This document shows positions 7,412 through 57,847 of a stretch of 64,000 bases of DNA, piece by piece. Below the pieces are notes generated by a model that saw only the letters and a list, made by a program, of their open reading frames with translations, was not told the origin of the DNA and made no database searches. Every line of letters starts with the position of its first letter. The first letter of the stretch is position 1. The position numbers were made by a program, and so were the translations under genes. Origin of the DNA: an uncultured Pseudomonadales bacterium (lineage in GTDB: Bacteria; Patescibacteriota; Microgenomatia; UBA1400; UBA12108); the NCBI GenBank assembly GCA_964349305.1, contig CAYGFS010000001.1:15209-79208 (forward strand), given 5' to 3'.

Positions 7412-7489
7412 CCTGCAAGGACTGTCCTTGAAGCTGCCGCTTCGCCCTTCTCGGCTTGCAGCCGGGAATTCCTTTTAAGGACAGTCCTT
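7412..7489. repeat. structured palindromic element in the murA-dgkA spacer: CCTGCAAGG-led unit, palindromic 13-mers AAGGACTGTCCTT (7417-7429) and AAGGACAGTCCTT (7477-7489) flanking a GC-rich inner hairpin (GCTGCCGC..GCTTGCAGC)
   Basis: Direct reading: the two 13-mers are reverse complements of each other and each is self-complementary. The 3' copy overlaps the last codons and stop of murA. No T-tract follows, so this is not a classic intrinsic terminator. Confidence 0.6.
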
Positions 7490-8801
7490 AAATACGACGA
7501 ATATTTGCTGATAAATTCTGTAATCGCTCGTCGAAGCGTTCGTAGCCGCGATCGATTAGCTCAACGTTGTCGATCACAGACTCTCCCGTGGCCAAGATCG
7601 CAGCCATCACTAAAGTAGCACCGCCGCGAAGGTCTGGCACAGTCATGTGGGATCCGCGCAGAGGTGTGGGGCCCGTGACTTTGACGGCGTGGGGATAACT
7701 GGTAATTTCGGGATAGTTAAAATCGTAGAACTTTTCTGGGTTAACAGGTGAGGGATCGTAATACTCGATTTTGGCTCCCATCGCATTTAAATCTTTGGCA
7801 AATGCCAGGCGATGCTGGGTGACTGTTTCGACGATCTTGGATATACCTTGAGCTTGGGTCATCATAGTAGTCCAGAGTGGCTGCCAATCGGTCATGAAAC
7901 CGGGTTCAGGCGCAGTGGTGAGGTCGGCCGCAACCAAAGGTTTTTCATAATAAAAACGAATACCATAATCGGCAATGTCGTATTTACCGCCGATCTCGTC
8001 TAGCTTGGAGAGAAATGCCGTCAGATGGGCAGGGTTGGCACCCTCAACAATAATATCTCCGCGGGTAGCAATAGCCATCGTAGCGTAGGAAACGGCTTCA
8101 TTACGATCTGGCATGACAAAGTGGGTCGCGCCGTGGAGTTGGTTTACGCCGACGATCTCGACGTTGTCCCCTACTCTTTTGACTGATCCACCCATTTTGT
8201 TAAAGAATTCGATGAGATCATCAATTTCTGGTTCGTGGGCAGCATTCTCAATCACCGTTTTACCTTTGGCCAAGACAGCCGCGATAATGAGCGCTTCTGT
8301 TCCAGTGTGAGATTTTTTTTCAAAGCGATAGGTGGCGCCACGCAAACCATTCTCGGCGATCATTTGGATACCCTGGTCATCGCAAATAACGGTAGCTCCC
8401 ATAGCACGGAATCCGTCCAAGTGGCGGTCAATGGGGCGCTCTCCCAGAGCGCACCCGCCAGGGAGCGGGATAATGGCACGGCCTTTTTTGTTGAGGAGTA
8501 AACCGGCAAAGAGGGTGGCAGCCCGCGTCTTTTGCCCGGTGAAACTAGGGATTGTGTCGGTGGATAAACCATTACCCACAATATAGACCGTGTTATCTCC
8601 TGGCCGAGAGCATTTTACGCCGATGGCGTTTAGGGTTTGATAAGTTACGTCCACATCGCCGATTTGACTCATGTTGAGGAGACGCGATTCCCCGACCCCA
8701 CAGGCAGCCGCGATCATTAGCTTGAAACTAGCATTTTTGGCTCCTCCCAGACGAACTGCGCCTTTGAGGGGGGTACCGCCAATGATCTTAAAACTTGTCA
8801 T
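7488..8801 (-). CDS. murA: UDP-N-acetylglucosamine 1-carboxyvinyltransferase MurA
   Basis: 437 aa, MTSFKIIGGTPLKGAVRLGGAKNA... EPSP-synthase fold, catalytic Cys region (GGCALG). Confidence 0.9.
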   Translation of the reverse strand: MTSFKIIGGTPLKGAVRLGGAKNASFKLMIAAACGVGESRLLNMSQIGDVDVTYQTLNAIGVKCSRPGDNTVYIVGNGLSTDTIPSFTGQKTRAATLFAGLLLNKKGRAIIPLPGGCALGERPIDRHLDGFRAMGATVICDDQGIQMIAENGLRGATYRFEKKSHTGTEALIIAAVLAKGKTVIENAAHEPEIDDLIEFFNKMGGSVKRVGDNVEIVGVNQLHGATHFVMPDRNEAVSYATMAIATRGDIIVEGANPAHLTAFLSKLDEIGGKYDIADYGIRFYYEKPLVAADLTTAPEPGFMTDWQPLWTTMMTQAQGISKIVETVTQHRLAFAKDLNAMGAKIEYYDPSPVNPEKFYDFNYPEITSYPHAVKVTGPTPLRGSHMTVPDLRGGATLVMAAILATGESVIDNVELIDRGYERFDERLQNLSANIRRI

Positions 8802-9810: not shown

Positions 9811-9875
9811 AAGGTCAGACCTTCCCTCCTGATTGATTATGGTCGGGTTGGGCACTTCCTTCAAGGTCTGACCTT
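9811..9875. repeat. paired 13-bp palindromes AAGGTCAGACCTT (9811-9823) and AAGGTCTGACCTT (9863-9875) with a 39-bp spacer, spanning the murC stop codon and lying 10 nt upstream of the murB start
   Basis: Direct reading: the two 13-mers are mutual reverse complements. Same architecture as the AAGGACTGTCCTT/AAGGACAGTCCTT pair at 7417-7489. Confidence 0.6.
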
Positions 9876-11215
9876 GTAGCGTCGCCTATTTTCACCCATT
9901 TTTCATGGAGTTTGTAGACAAATCCCGCACCCATGGTGAGGATGAGATCGCCAGGTTTGGAGGCGGCCCAGACAATATCGGCGGCATTGTCCCACGTGAG
10001 CGCCATGGCCGCCGAGTTATGTTTAGCCACTTCGGCGGCGAAGGACTCCGGGGTAATTTGGTGAGCTACCCCTTTTTCCCTGGCTGATTCGAAAATAGGC
10101 ATGATGAAGGGAAGATCGGACAGGGCGATCGATTTAGCAAATTCGTCCAGCAATGCTTCGGTACGGCTATAGGTATGGGACTCGAACACGAGTAGAATGC
10201 GGGAGTCAGGAAAATGTGCTTTAAATGATTGAACTGTGAGCTCAATCTCGCGTGGATGATGGCCGTAATCGTCGTAAAGTAGGCGTCCAGCAACCTCTCC
10301 ATGGCTTTCCTGGCGTCTCCCTGCTCCATGGTAGGCCTTGATCGCTGCGAGTGCTTGCGATTCGCTTAAACCGGCCTCTATGGCGGCCAAGACGGCGGCC
10401 AGTGCATCCAACTTGTTTTGATCGCCAAACACGGAGAGCTGGAGTTGGGCATAGAGCGAGTGGTTTGATCCGTATGGTATCACTTTGATATCCTGCAGGG
10501 CCTGGCCCTGAAGGTCGAGAATTTGAGCGGTCAAAGGGTCGGAGGGATTACAGATCCAAGTACCACCTACAGGAATGGAGGCCACGAGGTCGGCAAACGC
10601 CTGACGGGTAGCGGAGGCGTCCGGATAAATATCGGGATGATCGTGGATGATATTGGTGGTAATCAGGATTTGGGGAGTAAGGAGCGCAAACTTTGGCCTG
10701 GAATCAGTCTTGCTAATGGCATACTCGTCTGATTCCACCACAAAGTAGGAATCATCCCCTGCATGACCGGGGGCACTGAGCCCAGCGATAGATCCAGTAC
10801 CGACATAATACCCGACATCACGCCCAGCTGCGTGAAAAAGTGCGGCCAGCATGGCGGATGTGGTGGTCTTACCCCCAACCCCAGCCACTGAGATGACTTT
10901 TTTATCACTGACAAACTCGGCCAGAGCTTCGGCGAGTGAGAGAGGGTCAGACACTCCCGGAGTGTGGGAGCCCTTCACTCCGGGAGTGATGGATGCAGTG
11001 GCTACATAAGCCCCAGAATAAATAATTTCATCAACGTCAGGGATCGGATCGGAAAAAGATTGAATTTTGATACCTCGCTTATTCAAAATATCGTCCGTGA
11101 TAAATGACTCATTTGTGTCTGACCCAGATATAGTCCAACCGGTATCTTGCATGGCGAGAGCCAGCGAACACATCCCTACACCCTTGATCCCGATATAATA
11201 CGCTGATTTGGTCAT
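9815..11215 (-). CDS. murC: UDP-N-acetylmuramate--L-alanine ligase MurC (carries two in-frame palindromic insertions)
   Basis: 466 aa, MTKSAYYIGIKGVGMCSLA..., Mur ligase P-loop (GVGGKTTTSAML). Confidence 0.9.
   Translation of the reverse strand: MTKSAYYIGIKGVGMCSLALAMQDTGWTISGSDTNESFITDDILNKRGIKIQSFSDPIPDVDEIIYSGAYVATASITPGVKGSHTPGVSDPLSLAEALAEFVSDKKVISVAGVGGKTTTSAMLAALFHAAGRDVGYYVGTGSIAGLSAPGHAGDDSYFVVESDEYAISKTDSRPKFALLTPQILITTNIIHDHPDIYPDASATRQAFADLVASIPVGGTWICNPSDPLTAQILDLQGQALQDIKVIPYGSNHSLYAQLQLSVFGDQNKLDALAAVLAAIEAGLSESQALAAIKAYHGAGRRQESHGEVAGRLLYDDYGHHPREIELTVQSFKAHFPDSRILLVFESHTYSRTEALLDEFAKSIALSDLPFIMPIFESAREKGVAHQITPESFAAEVAKHNSAAMALTWDNAADIVWAASKPGDLILTMGAGFVYKLHEKWVKIGDATRSDLEGSAQPDHNQSGGKV
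10492..10514. repeat. family-B in-frame palindromic element copy B1 (CCTGCAGGGCCTGGCCCTGAAGG) inside murC, encoding LQGQALQ
   Basis: 22/23 identical to 42573-42595 in an unrelated GT4 gene. 11-bp arms with a 1-nt loop. Confidence 0.7.
10952..10988. repeat. family-A in-frame palindromic element copy A1 (CACTCCCGGAGTG-TGGGAGCCCTT-CACTCCGGGAGTG; arms 13 bp) inside murC, encoding TPGVKGSHTPGV
   Basis: Second copy at about 36094-36130 in a GT4 gene with the same loop, stems changed in a compensatory way (T/A swaps), and an identical encoded peptide. Confidence 0.75.
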
Positions 11216-23584: not shown

Positions 23585-24654
23585 AGACTGTTGATCCTCT
23601 CCTTCATTTGTGTCGCCCAAATATTTTGATCAAACTGCTTCGCGCTGGCTACACAAACTGAGGGCACGAAAGTCATTGTATCAAACTGCTTGAGCGCTTT
23701 GGCAAATGAATCCACCGTCGCTTCCTCGAGTAAAATCCCCGCCTTGCCTGGAATAACAATATCGAGCGCACCACCCCGAGCATAAGCGATGACTGGCTTG
23801 CCGGCAGCTAACGCTTCACACATGGAGATCCCAAAATCCTCCTCATTGGCCTGGAGGTAGGCCAAACAATGCCGGTAGTAATTGGGTAATTCTGCGTCAT
23901 TGACGTGGCCGAGCAATTCGACAGTCGGACCAGCTATTTGCAGGAGACGCCCGTATTCGCTCCCCTGCCCAATAATTTTGAGCTTTACTTTCGCTTGGTT
24001 GGCAGCGCGGATCAACACGTCGATTTTTTTGTAGGGGACGAGGCGTGAGACCACGAGGAAGTAATTAGAATCTAGACTCCAGACTTTAGACTTTAGTGGG
24101 ACTGCAGAGAATTTTGTGGTATCGACAGGGGGGAATATTATTGCAGCATCACGATTGTAGATATTTTTTATACGTTTTTTCACTTGAGTACTTATTGCAA
24201 TCATTTCTTCTGGTCTACTAGCAGCGACCAAATCCCATTGACGCAAGTAATTGCCGACAAAGCGGTAGAGAGGATTTGAGAGGTATTCGCGAGCGTGTGA
24301 GTAGAGATAGCGAGTAGGAGTCAAGCAATAATATAGATGTTTGGTCCCAGGGCGAGTAATGACCCCCTTGGATTCGGCGCTGCCGATCGAGATAACTAAA
24401 TCGTAACTACGCAAATCGAAGGATTCAAAAATAAAAGGCATGAGAAACGGGATCCACTCGTGGTGCGTACGCAAGAATGGAACTCGATTAAGCCAAGAGG
24501 TATGGACGTGCCAATCTTTGGAAAAGGCCGCACGGATGGGATCCCAAACGCTGGTATACCAGTCTGCCTCAGGATACATCTTGTGAAAGGCGATCAAAAC
24601 CTGCTCGGCACCCCCTATTTTGTTTAGGCGATCATAAACTATGGCTACGCGCAT
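23563..24654 (-). CDS. glycosyltransferase family 4 (GT-B, retaining)
   Basis: 363 aa, MRVAIVYDRLNKIGGAEQV..., C-terminal E-x7-E-like GT4 region (LQANEEDFGISMCEALAAGKPVIA). Confidence 0.8.
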   Translation of the reverse strand: MRVAIVYDRLNKIGGAEQVLIAFHKMYPEADWYTSVWDPIRAAFSKDWHVHTSWLNRVPFLRTHHEWIPFLMPFIFESFDLRSYDLVISIGSAESKGVITRPGTKHLYYCLTPTRYLYSHAREYLSNPLYRFVGNYLRQWDLVAASRPEEMIAISTQVKKRIKNIYNRDAAIIFPPVDTTKFSAVPLKSKVWSLDSNYFLVVSRLVPYKKIDVLIRAANQAKVKLKIIGQGSEYGRLLQIAGPTVELLGHVNDAELPNYYRHCLAYLQANEEDFGISMCEALAAGKPVIAYARGGALDIVIPGKAGILLEEATVDSFAKALKQFDTMTFVPSVCVASAKQFDQNIWATQMKERINSLCQTNQK

Positions 24655-25708
24655 TGATCACCTCCGCAATATCTTTGGCTACATCGTCCCAGGTGCGGGG
24701 GAATTTCAGCGGGCGACTGCGTGAGACCGCTACAACGGATTTAATTTTGCTCACTAAATCGTCGACAGAATATGGATCAAAATAAGTGACTTTGTCGCCG
24801 TACACCTCGCGATATACGGGAATATTGCTGGCAATCACCGGTGTGCCGACCATGAGAGACTCTAGCCCCACGAGGCCGTATCCCTCCATCAGAGAAGGCG
24901 TGACAAGCAGCTGGGCGTGGCAATAGACTGAGACCAATTCTTCGTCGGAAAGCCCAGATAGAATGTGGATGCGGGTGCGGTCGTACGGCGCCAGGACTCT
25001 GGCTAAAAAAGGAGATTGTTGGGATACCATAACTAGCTCGTAGTCGGGAAACTGCTTGAGAGCTTCCAGTAATACCGGGAGGTTTTTGTGGGGATAAACA
25101 TTACCGACGAATAAAATATATTTGTTGGGAATCACAAATCTTAAATTCTCAAATTTCAAATTTTTGCGGAAAATCTCGTCCGGAGCCTCGGGGATAGAGT
25201 GGATATGTTCTGGTTTGAGACCCCCGAAACTGGCTAAAATGTCGTTCTTGACGGAGTTGGTCGGGACGATGATCTCTTGCGCGCTTGCTAGGGTGCGCTG
25301 GATAACCTGGTTGTAGCCAAAACGTTTGAGGGCATATAACCAAGGCGAGCGGGTAGTCGTGTCGCTGCCCGTAAAGTGGGTTTTGATCAAATCGTGAACA
25401 GTCACTATCTTGGGGATGCCCGACAAAATGGGAGTATTGAAGTGAAAAGTGTAGAGCAGATCACTCCCCAGAGATTTGAGCAATCTCGGCAGCTTGAGCT
25501 GTTCTGCCAGAGAATAATGGGGGATATCCGCATAGACCTTCTCTACGTTGTTCCCGCCCTCGAAGTGATCATATTCGGCAGTGCGAAGTAAGACCTGCAA
25601 GGTGTAACCTTGCAGGTGTTTGGGGAGGTATTTGAGGACATTGGTGGTGTAGCGGCCGAGACCCGTGTGACCGGAACCATAAAACCTGGCATCGATGGCG
25701 ATCTTCAT
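24632..25708 (-). CDS. glycosyltransferase family 4
   Basis: Start set at MKIAIDARFYG; C-terminal PSLMEGYGLVGLESLMVGTPVIAS. Carries family-B palindromic element copy B3. Confidence 0.8.
   Translation of the reverse strand: MKIAIDARFYGSGHTGLGRYTTNVLKYLPKHLQGYTLQVLLRTAEYDHFEGGNNVEKVYADIPHYSLAEQLKLPRLLKSLGSDLLYTFHFNTPILSGIPKIVTVHDLIKTHFTGSDTTTRSPWLYALKRFGYNQVIQRTLASAQEIIVPTNSVKNDILASFGGLKPEHIHSIPEAPDEIFRKNLKFENLRFVIPNKYILFVGNVYPHKNLPVLLEALKQFPDYELVMVSQQSPFLARVLAPYDRTRIHILSGLSDEELVSVYCHAQLLVTPSLMEGYGLVGLESLMVGTPVIASNIPVYREVYGDKVTYFDPYSVDDLVSKIKSVVAVSRSRPLKFPRTWDDVAKDIAEVINARSHSL
25593..25617. repeat. family-B in-frame palindromic element copy B3 (ACCTGCAAGGT-GTA-ACCTTGCAGGT) inside a GT4 gene, encoding HLQGYTLQV
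   Basis: 11-bp arms with a 3-nt loop. The outer CCTGCA..TGCAGG matches copies B1/B2, while the inner arms differ but stay complementary. Confidence 0.6.
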
Positions 25709-25715
25709 AGTTTGA

Positions 25716-26612
25716 TTATAGACTAAGTCTAGCGATCTTGAGGAGTTTGATCCCAAGATAAACGAACCAGCTCACAAAAAATGGATACTTGTTGGCGTAG
25801 TGTTTGCGATAGAAAATCTCCATCGCTTCGATTGACCAGAGTTTGACCTGGCGGGTGGTACTCCGCTCTGCTGTGGAAACCGTCCTGCTCTGCCTCGACA
25901 TGCCAGTCGTGATCCCCTTGTAGTGGAGCACAGACACAGCTGGATAGTACCAATTGCGATATCCTGCCTGTTTAAGTCGGTAACAGAGATCGAGATCTTC
26001 ACCGTAAAGGGGATAATCTTCATCCCACCAGCCAAGCTGGTTCCCGACCTCTTTGCGCACGAGCATAAACATGCCCCCAACGGCATCTATTTCATGCTCG
26101 GTCGCGTAGCCGAGATATCTTTTGGTGTAGCGATTAAATAGTGGTGTCGTGGGGAATAGCTTGGCTAATCCACTGAAATGGGTAAAGCTTGCCCAGGGGG
26201 TGGGGAAACCGCGATGGCTGGTCTCGTCGATACTGCCAGTGAGCGCCAAGTTGACCCTGGCGGTGAGGGCTCCAATCCGCTTGTCACTCCACAACTTGTC
26301 GTAACATTGTTTGAGATCATGATCCGCTTGGAAAGTCACGTCGGGATTGAGGAACAAAATAGTGTCGGCACCGGCGCGAGTAACCCCCAGATTGTTGGCA
26401 GCCGAGAAGCCGGTTGCGGTATCACGACTTACCCATATGACGGATTTAAATTCTTGTGCCACCATCAACTTGGAATCGTCAGAAGACGCGTTGTCGACGA
26501 CGATGATCTCGGTGCTAATCCCCTCTTGAGCTAAAACCGATTTAAGGGTTTCACGCAAAAAATCTTTGGCGTTGTGATTGACGATAATAACGGAGATATC
26601 GGGTTTACTCAT
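25716..26612 (-). CDS. glycosyltransferase family 2 (GT-A)
   Basis: ISVIIVNHNAKDFL...IIVVDNASSDDS and a DxD-type region. One of the few genes here with a canonical SD (GGAGA 7 nt upstream). Confidence 0.8.
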   Translation of the reverse strand: MSKPDISVIIVNHNAKDFLRETLKSVLAQEGISTEIIVVDNASSDDSKLMVAQEFKSVIWVSRDTATGFSAANNLGVTRAGADTILFLNPDVTFQADHDLKQCYDKLWSDKRIGALTARVNLALTGSIDETSHRGFPTPWASFTHFSGLAKLFPTTPLFNRYTKRYLGYATEHEIDAVGGMFMLVRKEVGNQLGWWDEDYPLYGEDLDLCYRLKQAGYRNWYYPAVSVLHYKGITTGMSRQSRTVSTAERSTTRQVKLWSIEAMEIFYRKHYANKYPFFVSWFVYLGIKLLKIARLSL

Positions 26613-41021: not shown

Positions 41022-41882
41022 TTATTTTGATAGTTTTCCAGTTAACAACATCTCGGTAATCCCAACAAAGCGACCGAAATCGTAGATTATTTTATAAATT
41101 AAGAAGAGAGGCTCATTGGGAGATTTGATCATTCCTAGGACTAGCGAAATGGGCATGGACGTGCGGGTGAGGGCGTAGAAGCTACCAAGGAGTCCGTATT
41201 TGTATGGCCGCTTGGCAGACCAGCGAGCCTGGCGGAAGACGGCTCCGAGCGTACCGGGATTGTGGTGGTAACAGATAGCGCGGGTGGCCAGTGGGCGCAC
41301 GCCGAGCTTATTAAACAAGCTCCAGGTATCGGTATAGCCGATGTTATCGAACCCCCCTACCCTGTCAAATTCGGATTTGAGGATGGCGCGAAAATCGGTG
41401 CCGTACGTGGGAGGGCCTGCCTGCGCAGGCAGGTTCGGTGGAAACCTTTTTTTGTCTTCCCACCCCTCTTCAATATTGAGACAGCGCGCCCAGACGTTGT
41501 CCCAATTGGCTACTCGCTCTTCCATGGTATATGTCCCGATCGCTTTCTTTGACTGAATTGGCTGGATTAAATCTTTAACATAATCTTTATCAAAAACCAT
41601 GTCGGCATCGACAAATAATAGGATGTCTGATTGCGCATGACTAGCACCCAAGTTGCGGGCGAGGGCCGGACCGCCATGGTTTTGTTTAATTAAAGTATAT
41701 TTGCGATCACCCATTACTTCGATAATTCGAATTATCGTAGTATCGGTACTACCATCGTCGACGACGATGACTTCGATTGGGACGGACTGCATAAGTAAAG
41801 ACTCTAGACAGGCTTGAATCGTTGACTCTGAGTTGTAAGCCGCGAGGATAGCAGAAGCAACTAATTTATTTGATGAGGTCAT
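41022..41882 (-). CDS. glycosyltransferase family 2
   Basis: ASAILAAYNSESTI...[12 protein letters not shown]...FVDADMVF. Contains the 18-bp perfect palindrome CCTGCCTGCGCAGGCAGG (41413-41430) in-frame (NLPAQAGPP). Confidence 0.8.
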   Translation of the reverse strand: MTSSNKLVASAILAAYNSESTIQACLESLLMQSVPIEVIVVDDGSTDTTIIRIIEVMGDRKYTLIKQNHGGPALARNLGASHAQSDILLFVDADMVFDKDYVKDLIQPIQSKKAIGTYTMEERVANWDNVWARCLNIEEGWEDKKRFPPNLPAQAGPPTYGTDFRAILKSEFDRVGGFDNIGYTDTWSLFNKLGVRPLATRAICYHHNPGTLGAVFRQARWSAKRPYKYGLLGSFYALTRTSMPISLVLGMIKSPNEPLFLIYKIIYDFGRFVGITEMLLTGKLSK

Positions 41883-42933
41883 GAAACTCCTGACTAATTT
41901 GTTTGACCACTGATTTTAACGCGTATGGTTTGAGCTGTGCGCCATAGTCGATTTTGCTGAGTGAGTGAGCTTGCTTGATCCCCTCGACGATGGCTGTGAT
42001 ATTGTGCGGATCGACATAGATACCCTGGTTGCCGATGATGTCACGACGGATGGGGTCGTCTGAGGCCACGATGGGGAGACCGGCAGCCATCGCTTCAAGG
42101 TACACCATCCCAAATGCTTCTTGAGGATCTGGTACAAAACAAAAGATATCACTGCCGCGATAGTAATCAGCTATCTCGCTATGTTCGACTTGTTTGATCC
42201 ATTTGAACTCACCGGGATAGTGACTGAGTTGCCTGGCAATATGACCCTGCTCTTCCCCGTCCCCCACTAAACAGAGTGATACTGACAGCTGGGAAGTGGC
42301 GGCAATCACCGAATCCACATTTTTGTATTTGGAAAGGGCGGAAACAGTGAGAACGACGGGGGACGGGAGTCCAGTAAGGGGTTTATGCTTGCCTCGGAAA
42401 GGTGTTGGATCGAACGGATTGGGGATATAGACGACTTTGGTGGATGAGGGAGCGATCCCACGAGCCCACACCTCTGCATCTGGTGTCAGAGCAACGAATA
42501 AATCTGGTATGGCGCGCAGGCTAGATTTGTCGTGATGACCAATACCGGCATGGCCAAAAGTGATTATCTTGGCCTGCAGGGCCTGGCCCTGCAGGATACG
42601 AACTTGGAGTGGACCGTTAATGGCTACGATAATGTCGGGCTTAAATAGAGCCAGCTGGGGAATGGAGGACTGGGTAAACTGGGCGACCAACCCACTCTCC
42701 TGGTCGACGTGGAGACGAAAAAGTAATTTCTCCCACATATTGCGGGGGGCAGAGGGCGGGATTTGACTAAGTGGGTTAACTCGTTTGACTAAGTAGGGCT
42801 TGGGCGATACAGGGCCTGATTGGATCATGAGGACGTCGTGATGTTTGGATAGTTCACTGGCGAGTTGATCGACCACGACCTCGCTACCTCTTTCGATAAG
42901 TCCCATGGTCATGTGCAAAAAAATTATTCTCAT
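41866..42933 (-). CDS. glycosyltransferase family 4
   Basis: C-terminal FGMVYLEAMAAGLPIVAS. Carries family-B element copy B2 encoding ILQGQALQA. Confidence 0.75.
   Translation of the reverse strand: MRIIFLHMTMGLIERGSEVVVDQLASELSKHHDVLMIQSGPVSPKPYLVKRVNPLSQIPPSAPRNMWEKLLFRLHVDQESGLVAQFTQSSIPQLALFKPDIIVAINGPLQVRILQGQALQAKIITFGHAGIGHHDKSSLRAIPDLFVALTPDAEVWARGIAPSSTKVVYIPNPFDPTPFRGKHKPLTGLPSPVVLTVSALSKYKNVDSVIAATSQLSVSLCLVGDGEEQGHIARQLSHYPGEFKWIKQVEHSEIADYYRGSDIFCFVPDPQEAFGMVYLEAMAAGLPIVASDDPIRRDIIGNQGIYVDPHNITAIVEGIKQAHSLSKIDYGAQLKPYALKSVVKQISQEFHDLIK
42573..42595. repeat. family-B in-frame palindromic element copy B2 (CCTGCAGGGCC-T-GGCCCTGCAGG), perfect 11-bp arms
   Basis: Near-identical (22/23) to copy B1 at 10492-10514 in murC. 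Confidence 0.7.
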
Positions 42934-43769
42934 AATTTTTTAGAATTAAGATTCAAGATTTTAGACGAAAGAAATCTTTTTGTTTGTTTGATTGGTGTAA
43001 TAATATAGGCTAAAGCTTCATATAGCATACTGCGATGAACCAGAGGATCTGGAACCAAATCAGGTCGAGGAAGTTTAAAAACTTCGGGCAGTGAACCCTC
43101 AATATTTATCCCCCGCTCAATTTTGTATTTACTGCGATTGAACATGGGCAGATTACCACCCATACTCGAGCGTTTTAAATACATGGCGTGATAGAGATAG
43201 GTCTGAGTGATATACCATTCTTTTGGATCATGGCTCAAAATAGAATAACCCTGTCCATCGTAAAATCCTTCGTTTGGGTAATCTCCCTGGTAAGCCAGTC
43301 CTTTGATTTTAGTTTTGTTGACTAGTCTGACGAGTAGGTGACCGTGATGACCAAACAAATTGTAACTCCCAACTGATTCGATTTGGCGGTGATAAACATC
43401 ACCCAGGAGATCAAACCGACGAACCACAATACCTTCATAGCGATCGGATTTGATGGCGGCAAGACATTCCTTGGCAGTATTATCGGGATAAACTTCGTCA
43501 CCGTCGACAATCCAAATCCATGATGTAGTCGTGAGGTCGAGCTGCTGTGATCTGATCGCTGTGACCTCTGCTGGTGTATTGGCAGTTGTTTGAGTGAGTT
43601 GGATTTTAGAAGACTTGATAGATTTAATCACTGCCACGGTATGGTCGGTAGAACCAGTATCGGTAATGAGAAACTTATCTACGTACGGAAGGATCGATTG
43701 GATCGCAAACCATACCCATTGATCTTCGTTTTTGACGATCATGTGAGCCGTGATTTGGGTAGCTGTCAT
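42930..43769 (-). CDS. glycosyltransferase family 2-like (GT-A)
   Basis: HMIVKNEDQWV...ITDTGSTDHT...WIVDGDEVY. GT-A/DxD architecture. Confidence 0.65.
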   Translation of the reverse strand: MTATQITAHMIVKNEDQWVWFAIQSILPYVDKFLITDTGSTDHTVAVIKSIKSSKIQLTQTTANTPAEVTAIRSQQLDLTTTSWIWIVDGDEVYPDNTAKECLAAIKSDRYEGIVVRRFDLLGDVYHRQIESVGSYNLFGHHGHLLVRLVNKTKIKGLAYQGDYPNEGFYDGQGYSILSHDPKEWYITQTYLYHAMYLKRSSMGGNLPMFNRSKYKIERGINIEGSLPEVFKLPRPDLVPDPLVHRSMLYEALAYIITPIKQTKRFLSSKILNLNSKKL

Positions 43770-45037: not shown

Positions 45038-46134
45038 ACAGCTCTTATTGTCTCACAGACAGTCCCTATTTGGTCATCGGTGATAGCCAAGCCAGATGGC
45101 AGGTAGCAGCCGTCCCTGGCAATCCTCTGTGTGACCGGGAATGACCCACCTCCCAAGCCTTTATCGGTGAGGGCTGGCTGGGTGCTGGGAGCATAAAAGA
45201 AATCGCGGGTATCGATCCCTTTGGACAGTAATTTGGCGCGAAACTCATCTTTATTGCAGCCAAATTTGGACTCGTCAATCAGGATGGCGTACATCCAGTA
45301 CACGTGAGTCGCCCAATTTCTTGTAGTAGGGAGGGTGATTCCAGGAATATCTTTTAATCCTGCTAGGTAAAGTTTGGCCATATGCTGTTTGGTGGCGAGA
45401 AATTCGCCGATGTGCTGGAGCTGACCGCTGCCGAGGGCTGCCTGCATGCTGGTCATGCGGTAGTTGTAGCCGAGGGCGTCGTGGATAAAGCGCTTGGCTG
45501 TACTGTGGGCTAAATCTTTCATCCTCCCCGCAAGTTCCGCCATCTGATCATTGTCGGTTGTCACCATGCCACCCTCGCCGGTGGTAATTATTTTGTTGGC
45601 GTAAAAACTAAAGGCATTCACGTCTCCGATAGATCCAGTCAGTTTGCCTTTGTAGGTAGCCCCGTGAGCTTCGGCGGCGTCTTCGATGACTACCAGGTCG
45701 TGTTTTTTGGCGATCGCCAAAATGGGATCCATATCGGCGGGATGACCGTAGATATGCACTGGCATGATGGCTTTGGTTTTAGCAGTAATTGCGGCCTCGA
45801 TGAGAGCAGGGTCAATCGTGTAGATATCCGGCTCGACATCGACAAAAATGGGAGTGGCCCCGGTATGCATGACCGCCATCCATGAGGCGGCCATGGTAAA
45901 TGCCGGTACGATGACTTCGTCCCCCTCGCCAATCCCGGCCGCCAGTAAGGCAATGTGGAGCGCAGCAGTACCGGTATTGACCGTGATGGCGTGTTTGACT
46001 CCCAGATACTCTGCAAATTCGTGCTCGAATTCGCTGAGGTAGGGTCCGGCAGAGGAGATCCAACCCTCTTCGAGTGCTTTGGCGACCAAGGACTTTGATT
46101 CTGGGGTAATGACGGGGGCGTTGACGGGTATCAT
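45022..46134 (-). CDS. DegT/DnrJ/EryC1/StrS-family PLP-dependent sugar aminotransferase
   Basis: 370 aa, VNTGTAALHIAL...VIVPAFTMAASW... and the conserved Lys region (SFYANKIITTGEGG). Confidence 0.85.
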   Translation of the reverse strand: MIPVNAPVITPESKSLVAKALEEGWISSAGPYLSEFEHEFAEYLGVKHAITVNTGTAALHIALLAAGIGEGDEVIVPAFTMAASWMAVMHTGATPIFVDVEPDIYTIDPALIEAAITAKTKAIMPVHIYGHPADMDPILAIAKKHDLVVIEDAAEAHGATYKGKLTGSIGDVNAFSFYANKIITTGEGGMVTTDNDQMAELAGRMKDLAHSTAKRFIHDALGYNYRMTSMQAALGSGQLQHIGEFLATKQHMAKLYLAGLKDIPGITLPTTRNWATHVYWMYAILIDESKFGCNKDEFRAKLLSKGIDTRDFFYAPSTQPALTDKGLGGGSFPVTQRIARDGCYLPSGLAITDDQIGTVCETIRAVCPNL

Positions 46135-56765: not shown

Positions 56766-57847
56766 GGCGAGCCGTTAATAGCATGTGCGATTTGGACGAC
56801 CTCAGCTTTGGACAAATACGGACCACAAGGAATGGAGAGTATTTCTTTAGTCAGCTGACGCGAAACCGGCAAATTGAGATCTGCGTATTCACGATTAAAA
56901 AGAGGCTGGTCTGGGATCAGGATGGGATAATGAACGAGGGTGGGAATATTTAATTGTTGCAAATATGTTTGTAATTCATTACGCTTTTTGACTCTGATGA
57001 CAAACTGATGGTAATTGGCCTGGGTAGAGGGTAGTGGCAAAATTGGATCTATTTTGGATTTATCTAGGTTTTCTAGATAAATTTTGGCATTGGCGGATCG
57101 GCGACCATTGAGCTCGTTTAAGTGCTTGAGCTTTTCCCTCAGTAGGGCTGCCTGGAGTTCATCTAACCGACTATTTAAGCCATAGACGACGTGCTCGTAT
57201 TTCTTGGCCTGACCATAGTCACGGATTTGGCGGCATTTGGTGGCCAAAGCATCATCATTCGTCGTAATACATCCGGCGTCGCCAATGGCACCAAGATTTT
57301 TGGTCGGGTAGAAACTAAAACAACCAAGCTCACCAATCGTGCCAAGCATTTGCTGCTTGTACATTGAGCCGTGCGCCTGTGCAGCATCCTCGATGACGAA
57401 TAGGTTGTGGGTCTTCGCTATCTCTCGAATTGGCTCAATTGCACAAGCATTGCCATAGAGATGGACGGGCAAGATCGCACGGGTTTTAGGTGTAATGGCC
57501 GCTTTGATTAATGCTTCATCAATTTGTCCATCAAGCTTGGTGTCGACAAAAACTGGAGTGGCTCCGACCGCGATAATAGCCAAGGTTGTGGCAATGGCTG
57601 AAAGCGGAGTAGTAATAACTTCGTCCCCCGGCCCGATGCCGAGCGCCATCAGCGATATTTGGATGGCTTCTAAACCGTTTGATACGCCGATGACGTGCTT
57701 TGAACCCAAGTAGTCAGCAAATTCGGCTTCAAATGATTCGACCTCTTTGCCTAAAATATACCACCCTGAGTCGAGAGTCCTAGTAAAGGCGGCATGATAC
57801 AACTCGGAAAATTCCTTGGCTTCGGCTTTAAAATCGACAAATTGCAT
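56756..57847 (-). CDS. DegT/DnrJ/EryC1/StrS-family sugar aminotransferase
   Basis: 363 aa, VSNGLEAIQISL..., conserved Lys region (SFYPTKNLGAIGDAG). Confidence 0.85.
   Translation of the reverse strand: MQFVDFKAEAKEFSELYHAAFTRTLDSGWYILGKEVESFEAEFADYLGSKHVIGVSNGLEAIQISLMALGIGPGDEVITTPLSAIATTLAIIAVGATPVFVDTKLDGQIDEALIKAAITPKTRAILPVHLYGNACAIEPIREIAKTHNLFVIEDAAQAHGSMYKQQMLGTIGELGCFSFYPTKNLGAIGDAGCITTNDDALATKCRQIRDYGQAKKYEHVVYGLNSRLDELQAALLREKLKHLNELNGRRSANAKIYLENLDKSKIDPILPLPSTQANYHQFVIRVKKRNELQTYLQQLNIPTLVHYPILIPDQPLFNREYADLNLPVSRQLTKEILSIPCGPYLSKAEVVQIAHAINGSPWV

Follow-up and report, generated by a model that had tools for sequence, protein, structure and literature searches.

Palindromic DNA is tolerated in frame inside functional genes in the case of the Rickettsia palindromic elements (RPEs), which are ca. 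100–150 bp long and decay with time. Proteobacteria have an excess of perfect short inverted repeats, which are conserved and have been attributed to template switching (Lavi et al., 2018, PMC5941160), a process that can create stems and also maintain them with multi-base compensatory changes (Mönttinen and Löytynoja, 2022, PMC8794818). Coding palindromes have also been described in the mitochondria of Nematomorpha, for which repeat conversion and a parasitic character were proposed (Mikhailov et al., 2019, PMC6649704). Here we describe a coding palindrome, B3, found in a stretch of 64,000 nucleotides (contig CAYGFS010000001.1, from here on the window) of an uncultured member of the candidate phyla radiation (CPR), within the gene for a cell-wall glycosyltransferase of the GT4 family. 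The names under which its homologs and related contigs are listed point to a Woesebacteria/Microgenomates genome. The palindrome is kept at the orthologous site in many species, where its two arms have changed together many times independently, and in these changes a synonymous site of one arm is tied to an amino-acid replacement in the opposite arm. We give a probability of roughly 50% to the reading in which B3 has come down vertically as a palindrome of coding DNA, the arms of which are held in concert by templated copying from one arm to the other and filtered by the protein.

Coding palindromes and inverted repeats maintained by template switching are already known, and what we describe is a variant in an uncultured CPR lineage. 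Like the template-switch inverted repeats (PMC5941160, PMC8794818), the palindromes of the window exceed the null expectation, are conserved among orthologs and show seemingly simultaneous multi-base compensation. They differ from them in that both arms are in-phase coding sequence, compensation brings amino-acid changes with it, the host belongs to the CPR and several sites share one core, something that templating alone does not predict. With the palindromes of Nematomorpha (PMC6649704) they have in common the perfect repeats in functional genes with both arms encoding conserved protein, the use of degeneracy to keep the pairing, the dynamic gain and loss, and a suspicion of conversion over function. 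However, those are mitochondrial, reach 284 bp and are many per genome, whereas ours are bacterial, measure 21–25 bp and lie at helix-turn-strand junctions (modelled for B3 only), with covariation that can be traced across ~30 species. In the literature we found no description of intragenic palindromes, of elements like the repetitive extragenic palindromes (REPs) with their associated tyrosine transposases (RAYTs), or of tiny in-frame palindromic indels in the CPR.

The coding strand of B3, which is the minus strand, reads CAC CTG CAA GGT TAC ACC TTG CAG GTC, i.e., HLQGYTLQV. In an AlphaFold2 model of the glycosyltransferase (mean pLDDT 87.5), this stretch (residues 31–39) codes for the end of helix 17–31, the turn 32–35 and the start of strand 36–41. 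Folding of the site gave −17.9 kcal/mol as RNA (z −5.2) and −12.0 kcal/mol as DNA (z −6.2). A first-pass annotation, made from the letters of the window, had described a palindrome with a GTA centre in this gene, and we could confirm it with a stem complementary at 11 of 11 positions. It was also right in that the element encodes LQGxxLQ (LQGYTLQ in B3 and LQGQALQ in two further copies, B1 in a Mur ligase gene and B2 in a second GT4 gene) and that the inner arms are altered on both sides, B3 differing from B2 at two stem positions that are each changed on both arms.

Part of this likeness comes from the genetic code. B3 is in phase, codon i being the reverse complement of codon −i (Leu with Gln or Lys, Gln with Leu, Gly with Thr, Ala or Ser). 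The reverse complements of the Leu codons CTG, TTG, CTT and CTC are Gln CAG, Gln CAA, Lys AAG and Glu GAG, and those of the Gly codons GGC, GGT, GGA and GGG are Ala GCC, Thr ACC, Ser TCC and Pro CCC. Therefore, an in-phase palindrome laid over L-x-G-x-x-L-x must read L[QKE]Gx[ATSP]L[QKE], and the resemblance among B1, B2 and B3 is partly forced. To judge from their sequences, B1 and B2 would code for similar helix-Gly-strand junctions, at non-homologous positions.

The symmetry is nevertheless far in excess of what the composition or the proteins of the window would produce. The pattern CCTGCA-N11-TGCAGG has two matches (0.02 expected), and perfect stems with loops of up to 6 nt number two at ≥11 bp and nine at ≥9 bp, against 0.07 and 1.4 in dinucleotide shuffles. 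When the codons of the 56 open reading frames (ORFs) were shuffled synonymously, with every protein sequence and the codon usage of each gene held fixed, the stems of ≥9 bp were seven versus 1.36 in the shuffles, none of which (0/200) reached the observed number. Under the background codon usage of the orthologs, an 11-bp stem would arise in the coding of HLQGYTLQV with a probability of ~7.5e-4.

Since B1 and B2 are located at non-homologous positions in other proteins, the proper test of covariation is provided by orthologs of one site, and this test was strongly positive. The B3 glycosyltransferase has many orthologs at 57–80% identity. At the site, L[QPRK]Gx[TAS]L[QK]VLLR is found in near relatives, and LKDHQLFV, LKKHKLHI or LSSHELLV in distant ones, at equal length, indicating that B3 is not an insertion and has been inherited vertically. 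The first-pass description of B3 as a diverged “copy” does not hold up, given that orthologs with and without the palindrome are equally long, and a mobile copy inserted into the gene was rejected for lack of any length difference among orthologs. Our DNA sample consists of 37 distinct orthologous B3 sites. A scan of genome contigs with full-length alignment yielded, among the matches listed, mostly paralogs at 33–39% and at least four useful orthologs, and alignment of the N-terminal part against a metagenome collection gave a better ortholog yield.

The codons of the two arms follow each other closely in sequences that were selected by peptide only. The Gly codon is GGT opposite Thr ACC, GGC opposite Ala GCC and GGA opposite Ser TCC, and the pair is complementary in 23 of 24 cases, the sole exception being L109 (L and P numbers are our handles for sequences of relatives), where GGT goes with Thr ACA. 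Divided by peptide, complementary Gly codon pairs were 13 of 14 for G..T (expected fraction 0.144), 5 of 5 for G..A (0.19) and 5 of 5 for G..S (0.02). In the same way, Gln CAA goes with Leu TTG or TTA and CAG with CTG, full complementarity being found in 18 of 21 Q..L pairs versus 0.10 expected, and Leu CTT goes with Lys AAG (4/9 L..K pairs versus 0.048 expected). The outer pair of L089 is TTG with CAA. Stems are perfect, at 11–12 bp, in L085, L086, L139 and L141 as well as in the window copy. The pattern also held out of sample: of seven orthologs (four G.A, three G.S) picked beforehand by peptide, every one showed the Gly codon expected and also concordant Gln and Leu codons.

Over the 37 ortholog DNAs, 74.3% of the cells were paired, compared to 66.2% in shuffles (0/500), and the covariation score was 0.223 versus 0.128 (0/500), with slid controls at 0.03–0.13. 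On a neighbor-joining gene tree built without the palindrome site, the arm states are interspersed, with at least nine, six and six switches between different Watson-Crick combinations at three pairs. As an example, L139 has CAA/TTG where its sister L138 has CAG/CTG. Several lineages (L003, L004/L104/L105 and L095) no longer have the palindrome, which is therefore dispensable. One ortholog (L117, 1201–1487) has a perfect 12-bp palindrome with the frame broken a few codons after it (LQVLLAPISS...), which suggests a deletion or a pseudogene beside the palindrome.

The sites of B2 and B1 behave similarly. Orthologs of the second GT4 carry LQG[QL]AL[QK] at the B2 site and distant ones lack it, with equal lengths. 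At the B1 site the Mur ligase orthologs read L[QRPS]Gx[ATS][LR][QK], the combinations being Q..L in 38, P..R in 4 and S..R in 3, all of them reverse-complement codon pairs, and position 5 is T, A or S in 53 of 54. The B1 ortholog of L172 is perfect (CTT CAG GGC CTG GCC CTG AAG), L145 reads CTT CAA GGC CAG GCC..TTT AAG, and both DNAs are compensated relative to the window copies. Compared to distant orthologs, B1 shows a length difference of ~3 aa. Right after the B1 site, three Mur ligase orthologs (P0271, P0288 and P0352) have, at the peptide level, an insertion of ~13 aa, SLAS(T/M)SDSESRR, the SDSES part of which looks as if it were palindrome-encoded.

Three observations favour a palindrome acting as DNA over an RNA hairpin. 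One is that the pairing reaches bases 1 and 3 of the central codon. Where this codon specifies Gln it is CAG in nine of nine cases, against a background of 35% (p = 8e-5), and Asp is GAC in 2/2 and Leu CTG in 2/3. Such pairing leaves a single unpaired base, which is impossible as a hairpin loop. Another is the spectrum of the non-Watson-Crick cells (5 G·U, 11 A·C and 21 of other types), in which G·U is not favoured. These two bear on the first-pass claim that covariation maintains the potential for secondary structure, which stands as far as the arms covary in orthologs of the same site and falls short of proof of a selected fold. Mismatched intermediates are rare among the B3 orthologs. The third observation is that the central codons include the reverse-complement partners TAC/GTA, CAG/CTG and GAG/CTC, as in-place inversion would yield.

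Under the reading that we favour, the arms would be kept complementary at the DNA level by templated copying from arm to arm during replication or repair, a process known as quasi-palindrome correction or template switching, of which the inter-strand type is probably a part. When one arm acquires a point change, this would be either reverted or copied onto the other arm, and selection on the protein would admit only those reverse-complement codon pairs that the surface turn tolerates (T, A or S at position 5, Q or K at position 7), so that no RNA function need be assumed. A coding palindrome could hardly be deleted without harm and would be continually re-perfected, which may account for its persistence. 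The same palindromes may be preferred sites of landing or formation for an 18-bp palindromic in-frame indel (Table 1).

Table 1. Palindromes and host genes, by position in the window or in the relative named.
Feature	Position	Strand	Description
B3 palindrome	25593..25617	−	ACCTGCAAGGT-GTA-ACCTTGCAGGT; perfect 11-bp stem (25593–25603 pairs with 25607–25617, 11/11), 3-nt loop; GT4 residues H31-LQGYTLQ-V39
B3 host gene	24632..25708	−	358-aa GT4-family glycosyltransferase; Pfam Glyco_transf_4 + Glycos_transf_1
B2	42573..42595	−	CCTGCAGGGCC-T-GGCCCTGCAGG; perfect, 11-bp stem, 1-nt loop; LQGQALQ; in second GT4, 41866..42933(−)
B1	10492..10514	−	CCTGCAGGGCCTGGCCCTGaAGG; one mismatch (CTT vs CAG); LQGQALQ; in MurC-like Mur ligase, 9815..11215(−)
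B4	9859..9879	−	CTTCAAGGTC-T-GACCTTGTAG; one mismatch; C-terminal tail of Mur ligase, other frame (TRSDLEG)
Smaller partner of B4	9811–9823		AAGGTC-T-GACCTT; overlaps Mur ligase stop codon
B5	7413..7433	.	CTGCAAGGAC-T-GTCCTTGAAG; murA-dgk intergenic spacer
B5-related palindrome	7474–7492		TTTAAGGAC-A-GTCCTTAAA; overlaps murA stop codon
18-mer	41416..41433	−	CCTGCCTGCGCAGGCAGG; separate perfect palindrome family; 6-codon in-frame insertion LPAQAG in GT2, 41022..41882
18-mer in relatives	L144 10093–10110 and 19397–19414; L145 10366–10383; L146 2740–2757; L100 783–800		CCTGCCTGCGCAGGCAGG

B3 belongs to a group of five palindromes in the 64 kb, three of them coding, one intergenic (B5) and one out of frame (B4). 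They share the pattern CARGG-N5-CCYTG, which has five matches in the window versus 0.27 expected (0/100 shuffles), and the inner bases are complementary in all five, with a covarying inner dinucleotide. As B4 and B5 are free of the LQG coding constraint, a DNA-level factor or a common origin has to be added to the constraint of the code. As part of the reading based on templated copying, the B family would be a small lineage-specific family of Woesebacteria with the consensus CTN-CAR-GGN-(N)-NCC-YTG-NAG. Homology of B2 and B3 within the GT4 fold was rejected, as they cover residues 113–119 and 32–38, in different secondary-structure elements. The C terminus of the window Mur ligase (9815–9960) is ~25–35 aa longer than in most of the orthologs listed, and the extra tail reads through two B-like palindromes, in what is otherwise 3′ flanking DNA. 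More perfect palindromes, with 9–10 bp per arm, are located at 42918–42941, 45705–45722, 57058–57082, 41720–41737 and 1275–1293. One of them, AAAAAATTAT-TCTC-ATAATTTTTT, spans the start codon of the B2 gene and another contains GGCGATCGCC, a core like that of the cyanobacterial HIP1. The window is coding-dense, with 51 of its 56 ORFs on the minus strand and neighbouring genes that abut or overlap, and its GC skew (1–64000) is positive on the plus strand almost throughout, so that the coding strand is C-rich.

The 18-mer is a separate case. The insertion in the GT2 gene is absent from two orthologs at 72% identity, a presence/absence length polymorphism like that of the RPEs which, at the loci described here, we found only for this element (41416–41433) and not at B3. 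The likeness to RPEs lies in palindromic DNA being tolerated in frame in a functional gene, as LPAQAG is. Unlike them, the 18-mer comprises only six codons, and B3 is no insertion and stays perfect. Identical copies of CCTGCCTGCGCAGGCAGG are found directly beside the B3 palindrome in L144, which has another in an unrelated gene, and within the B2 palindrome of L145 (right arm) and of L146 (left arm, in another frame, reading QACLRR). At the insertion sites examined there was neither a target duplication nor a common target motif. A scan of IMG/VR for the 18-mer gave 25 contigs, with 38–67% GC and flanks that are not conserved, and is uninformative on mobility. Variants of 20 bp, CCTGCCTGCCGGCAGGCAGG, occur in other Patescibacteria as two copies within a few kb (L054 340–359 and 1341–1360; L060 240–259 and 1470–1489), and also in L131 (2053–2072). 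The flanks shared by the L060 copies suggest, at the level of the sequence, a longer repeat unit.

A related Woesebacteria genome (L172, 18541–19256) codes for a 218-aa Y1_Tnp protein, IS200/RAYT-like (PF01797, 35.8 bits). Together with a MazG-like gene it is inserted between ftsW and murG, an insertion absent from the sister contig L173, and is flanked by two copies of ATCACATACCCGGTATGTGAT, a layout like that of REPs and RAYTs. Covarying relatives of these palindromes are found just upstream of the B3-orthologous GT4 gene, in intergenic position, in three other genomes (L090 1139–1165, L139 239–265 and L138 243–263), where the outer ATCA/TGAT and the inner ACC/GGT are fixed and the middle triplet covaries (aat/att, cac/gtg, cga/tcg). 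Thus, REP-RAYT-like machinery is present in the lineage. It is not in the window, where tblastn found no Y1 transposase.

Chance, or constraint from the peptide alone, was rejected by the dinucleotide shuffles, the synonymous shuffles and the codon complementarity of the orthologs. One could still think of a coincidence between codon usage and a common peptide motif, LxGxxLx, at helix-strand junctions of the Rossmann type. B3 does code for a helix-turn-strand junction in the AlphaFold2 model, B1 and B2 probably lie at similar junctions, and we estimate that the sharing of a 7-mer peptide within ~20,000 codons is no rarity in itself. However, the arms are written in codons of minority use (10% of Leu codons for TTG and for CTG, 9% of Gly for GGA and 22% of its family for TCC) and are complementary all the same (18/21, 13/14, 5/5 and 5/5), the stems observed exceed the synonymous null (matched by 0/200 shuffles), and the window copy alone has P ~7.5e-4, which leaves this coincidence with a practically negligible probability. 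An explanation that we consider unlikely, albeit to be kept in mind, is a functional mRNA hairpin in the coding sequence, acting as a barrier to 3′-5′ decay, a processing site or a translation pause, with covariation reflecting selection for RNA pairing. REP-like hairpins at the 3′ ends of genes classically stabilise mRNA, and related palindromes are found here at gene 3′ ends over stop codons (7474–7492 and 9811–9823). Streamlined operons with almost no intergenic space, where genes abut or overlap, would be a fitting context, and the stem is stable (−17.9 kcal/mol, z −5.2) and long conserved with compensatory changes. Yet the central codon is selected to pair as well (CAG 9/9), where an RNA loop could not close, G·U is not in excess over A·C among the mismatches, the position in the gene is inconsistent (codons 31–39, 113–119 and 235–241), and the palindrome has been lost repeatedly. 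B3 had no Rfam match at E up to 1, and neither an intrinsic terminator (hairpin plus U tract) nor a promoter was found in 25300–25900. A TadA-type editing hairpin with a UAC loop was also dropped, since UACG is missing and the middle codon can specify Y, Q, L, E, D, K or V.

More doubtful is a REP-like element, i.e., a hairpin of single-stranded DNA that either a RAYT/IS200-type Y1 (HUH) transposase or some other hairpin-binding protein of the host would recognise, in which the stem would be kept because recognition needs the fold and a CARGG foot. The resemblance to REPs, to the REP doublets known as REPINs and to their RAYTs (Di Nocera et al., 2013, PMC3733652) is considerable: a palindrome of 20–25 bp (B3, with its 11-bp stem and 3-nt loop, has the short stem-loop form of 20–40 bp seen in REPs), a dispersed family of five members in 64 kb with a covarying stem, one member intergenic and one out of frame, and a location at gene 3′ ends or over stop codons for some copies and within genes for others, as documented for REPs (PMC3733652). 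A related genome has the Y1_Tnp gene (PF01797, 35.8 bits) flanked by inverted palindromes, which are alike in architecture, their outer and inner bases being fixed and their middle covarying, and the insertion of the 18-mer leaves no target duplication, which is also true of IS200/IS605-type elements. On the other hand, the coding copies are old and orthologous and none of B1, B2 and B3 is an insertion relative to distant orthologs, save for ~3 aa at B1. No conserved unpaired GTAG or CGTC tag flanks B1–B5 (CTAC is frequent at the Leu codon of the orthologs, but inside the stem and on the wrong side for a REP tag), no cognate Y1 transposase gene was found in the window, and the transposase of L172 is flanked by a different palindrome, ATCACATACCCGGTATGTGAT. 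We regard as very improbable that the palindrome is an operator or recognition site for a dimeric DNA-binding protein or for a restriction-modification enzyme, e.g., of the CTGCAG/CCTGCAGG type. The symmetry running through the centre, the CARGG/CCYTG half-sites common to the five copies and the two CCTGCAGG sites in B2 would agree with it. Nevertheless, half-site bases change, always jointly, something that a fixed protein would not tolerate and that uncontacted bases would not need, and the outer CTGCAG is absent from most orthologs, which have CTA/CTT and AAG instead. The restriction-site version was rejected, with only three matches of CCTGCAGG versus 0.77 expected and an outer hexamer that is not conserved in the orthologs.

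Several points weigh against templated copying, a mechanism that we infer and have not seen directly. Selection for pairing predicts identical Watson-Crick covariation. The pair between Leu base 3 and Gln/Lys base 1 is mismatched in 15 of the 23 hairpin-bearing orthologs, with CTA much over-used, and frequent homogenisation of whole arms would not predict such mismatches, although the complement of CTA is a stop codon. For the central codon and the mismatch spectrum, the tests draw on ~23 sequences, and the switch counts are approximate, given that the neighbor-joining tree is star-like and poorly resolved. Finally, templating alone leaves unexplained the CARGG/CCYTG core common to unrelated sites, including B4 and B5, where it points to an extra sequence-specific factor or to a common origin. 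Function in the mRNA and a REP-like nature are live alternatives, and these readings are not mutually exclusive.

The known range of intragenic palindromes, REP-RAYT-like elements and tiny in-frame palindromic indels now takes in the CPR. At this locus DNA symmetry can be seen, with unusual clarity for a natural case, to override codon preference and to steer the protein sequence, with Thr, Ala and Ser tracking the Gly codon, Gln and Lys tracking the Leu codon, and Pro..Arg replacing Gln..Leu. The locus also carries a warning: coding DNA can acquire Watson-Crick covariation, which usually counts as the gold standard for a functional RNA structure, with no RNA function behind it. With three genes and dozens of species, it offers a tractable test bed for templated mutation versus selection on structure. 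A more speculative and rather improbable extension is that the intragenic palindromes of Woesebacteria are actively used by a hairpin-specific enzyme (Y1/HUH or other), the LQGxxLQ sites serving as landing pads where mini-palindromes such as CCTGCCTGCGCAGGCAGG are pasted in frame. If this were true, mobile DNA would be editing the surface loops of cell-envelope enzymes, and the residues there would be dictated by DNA symmetry and not by protein function.

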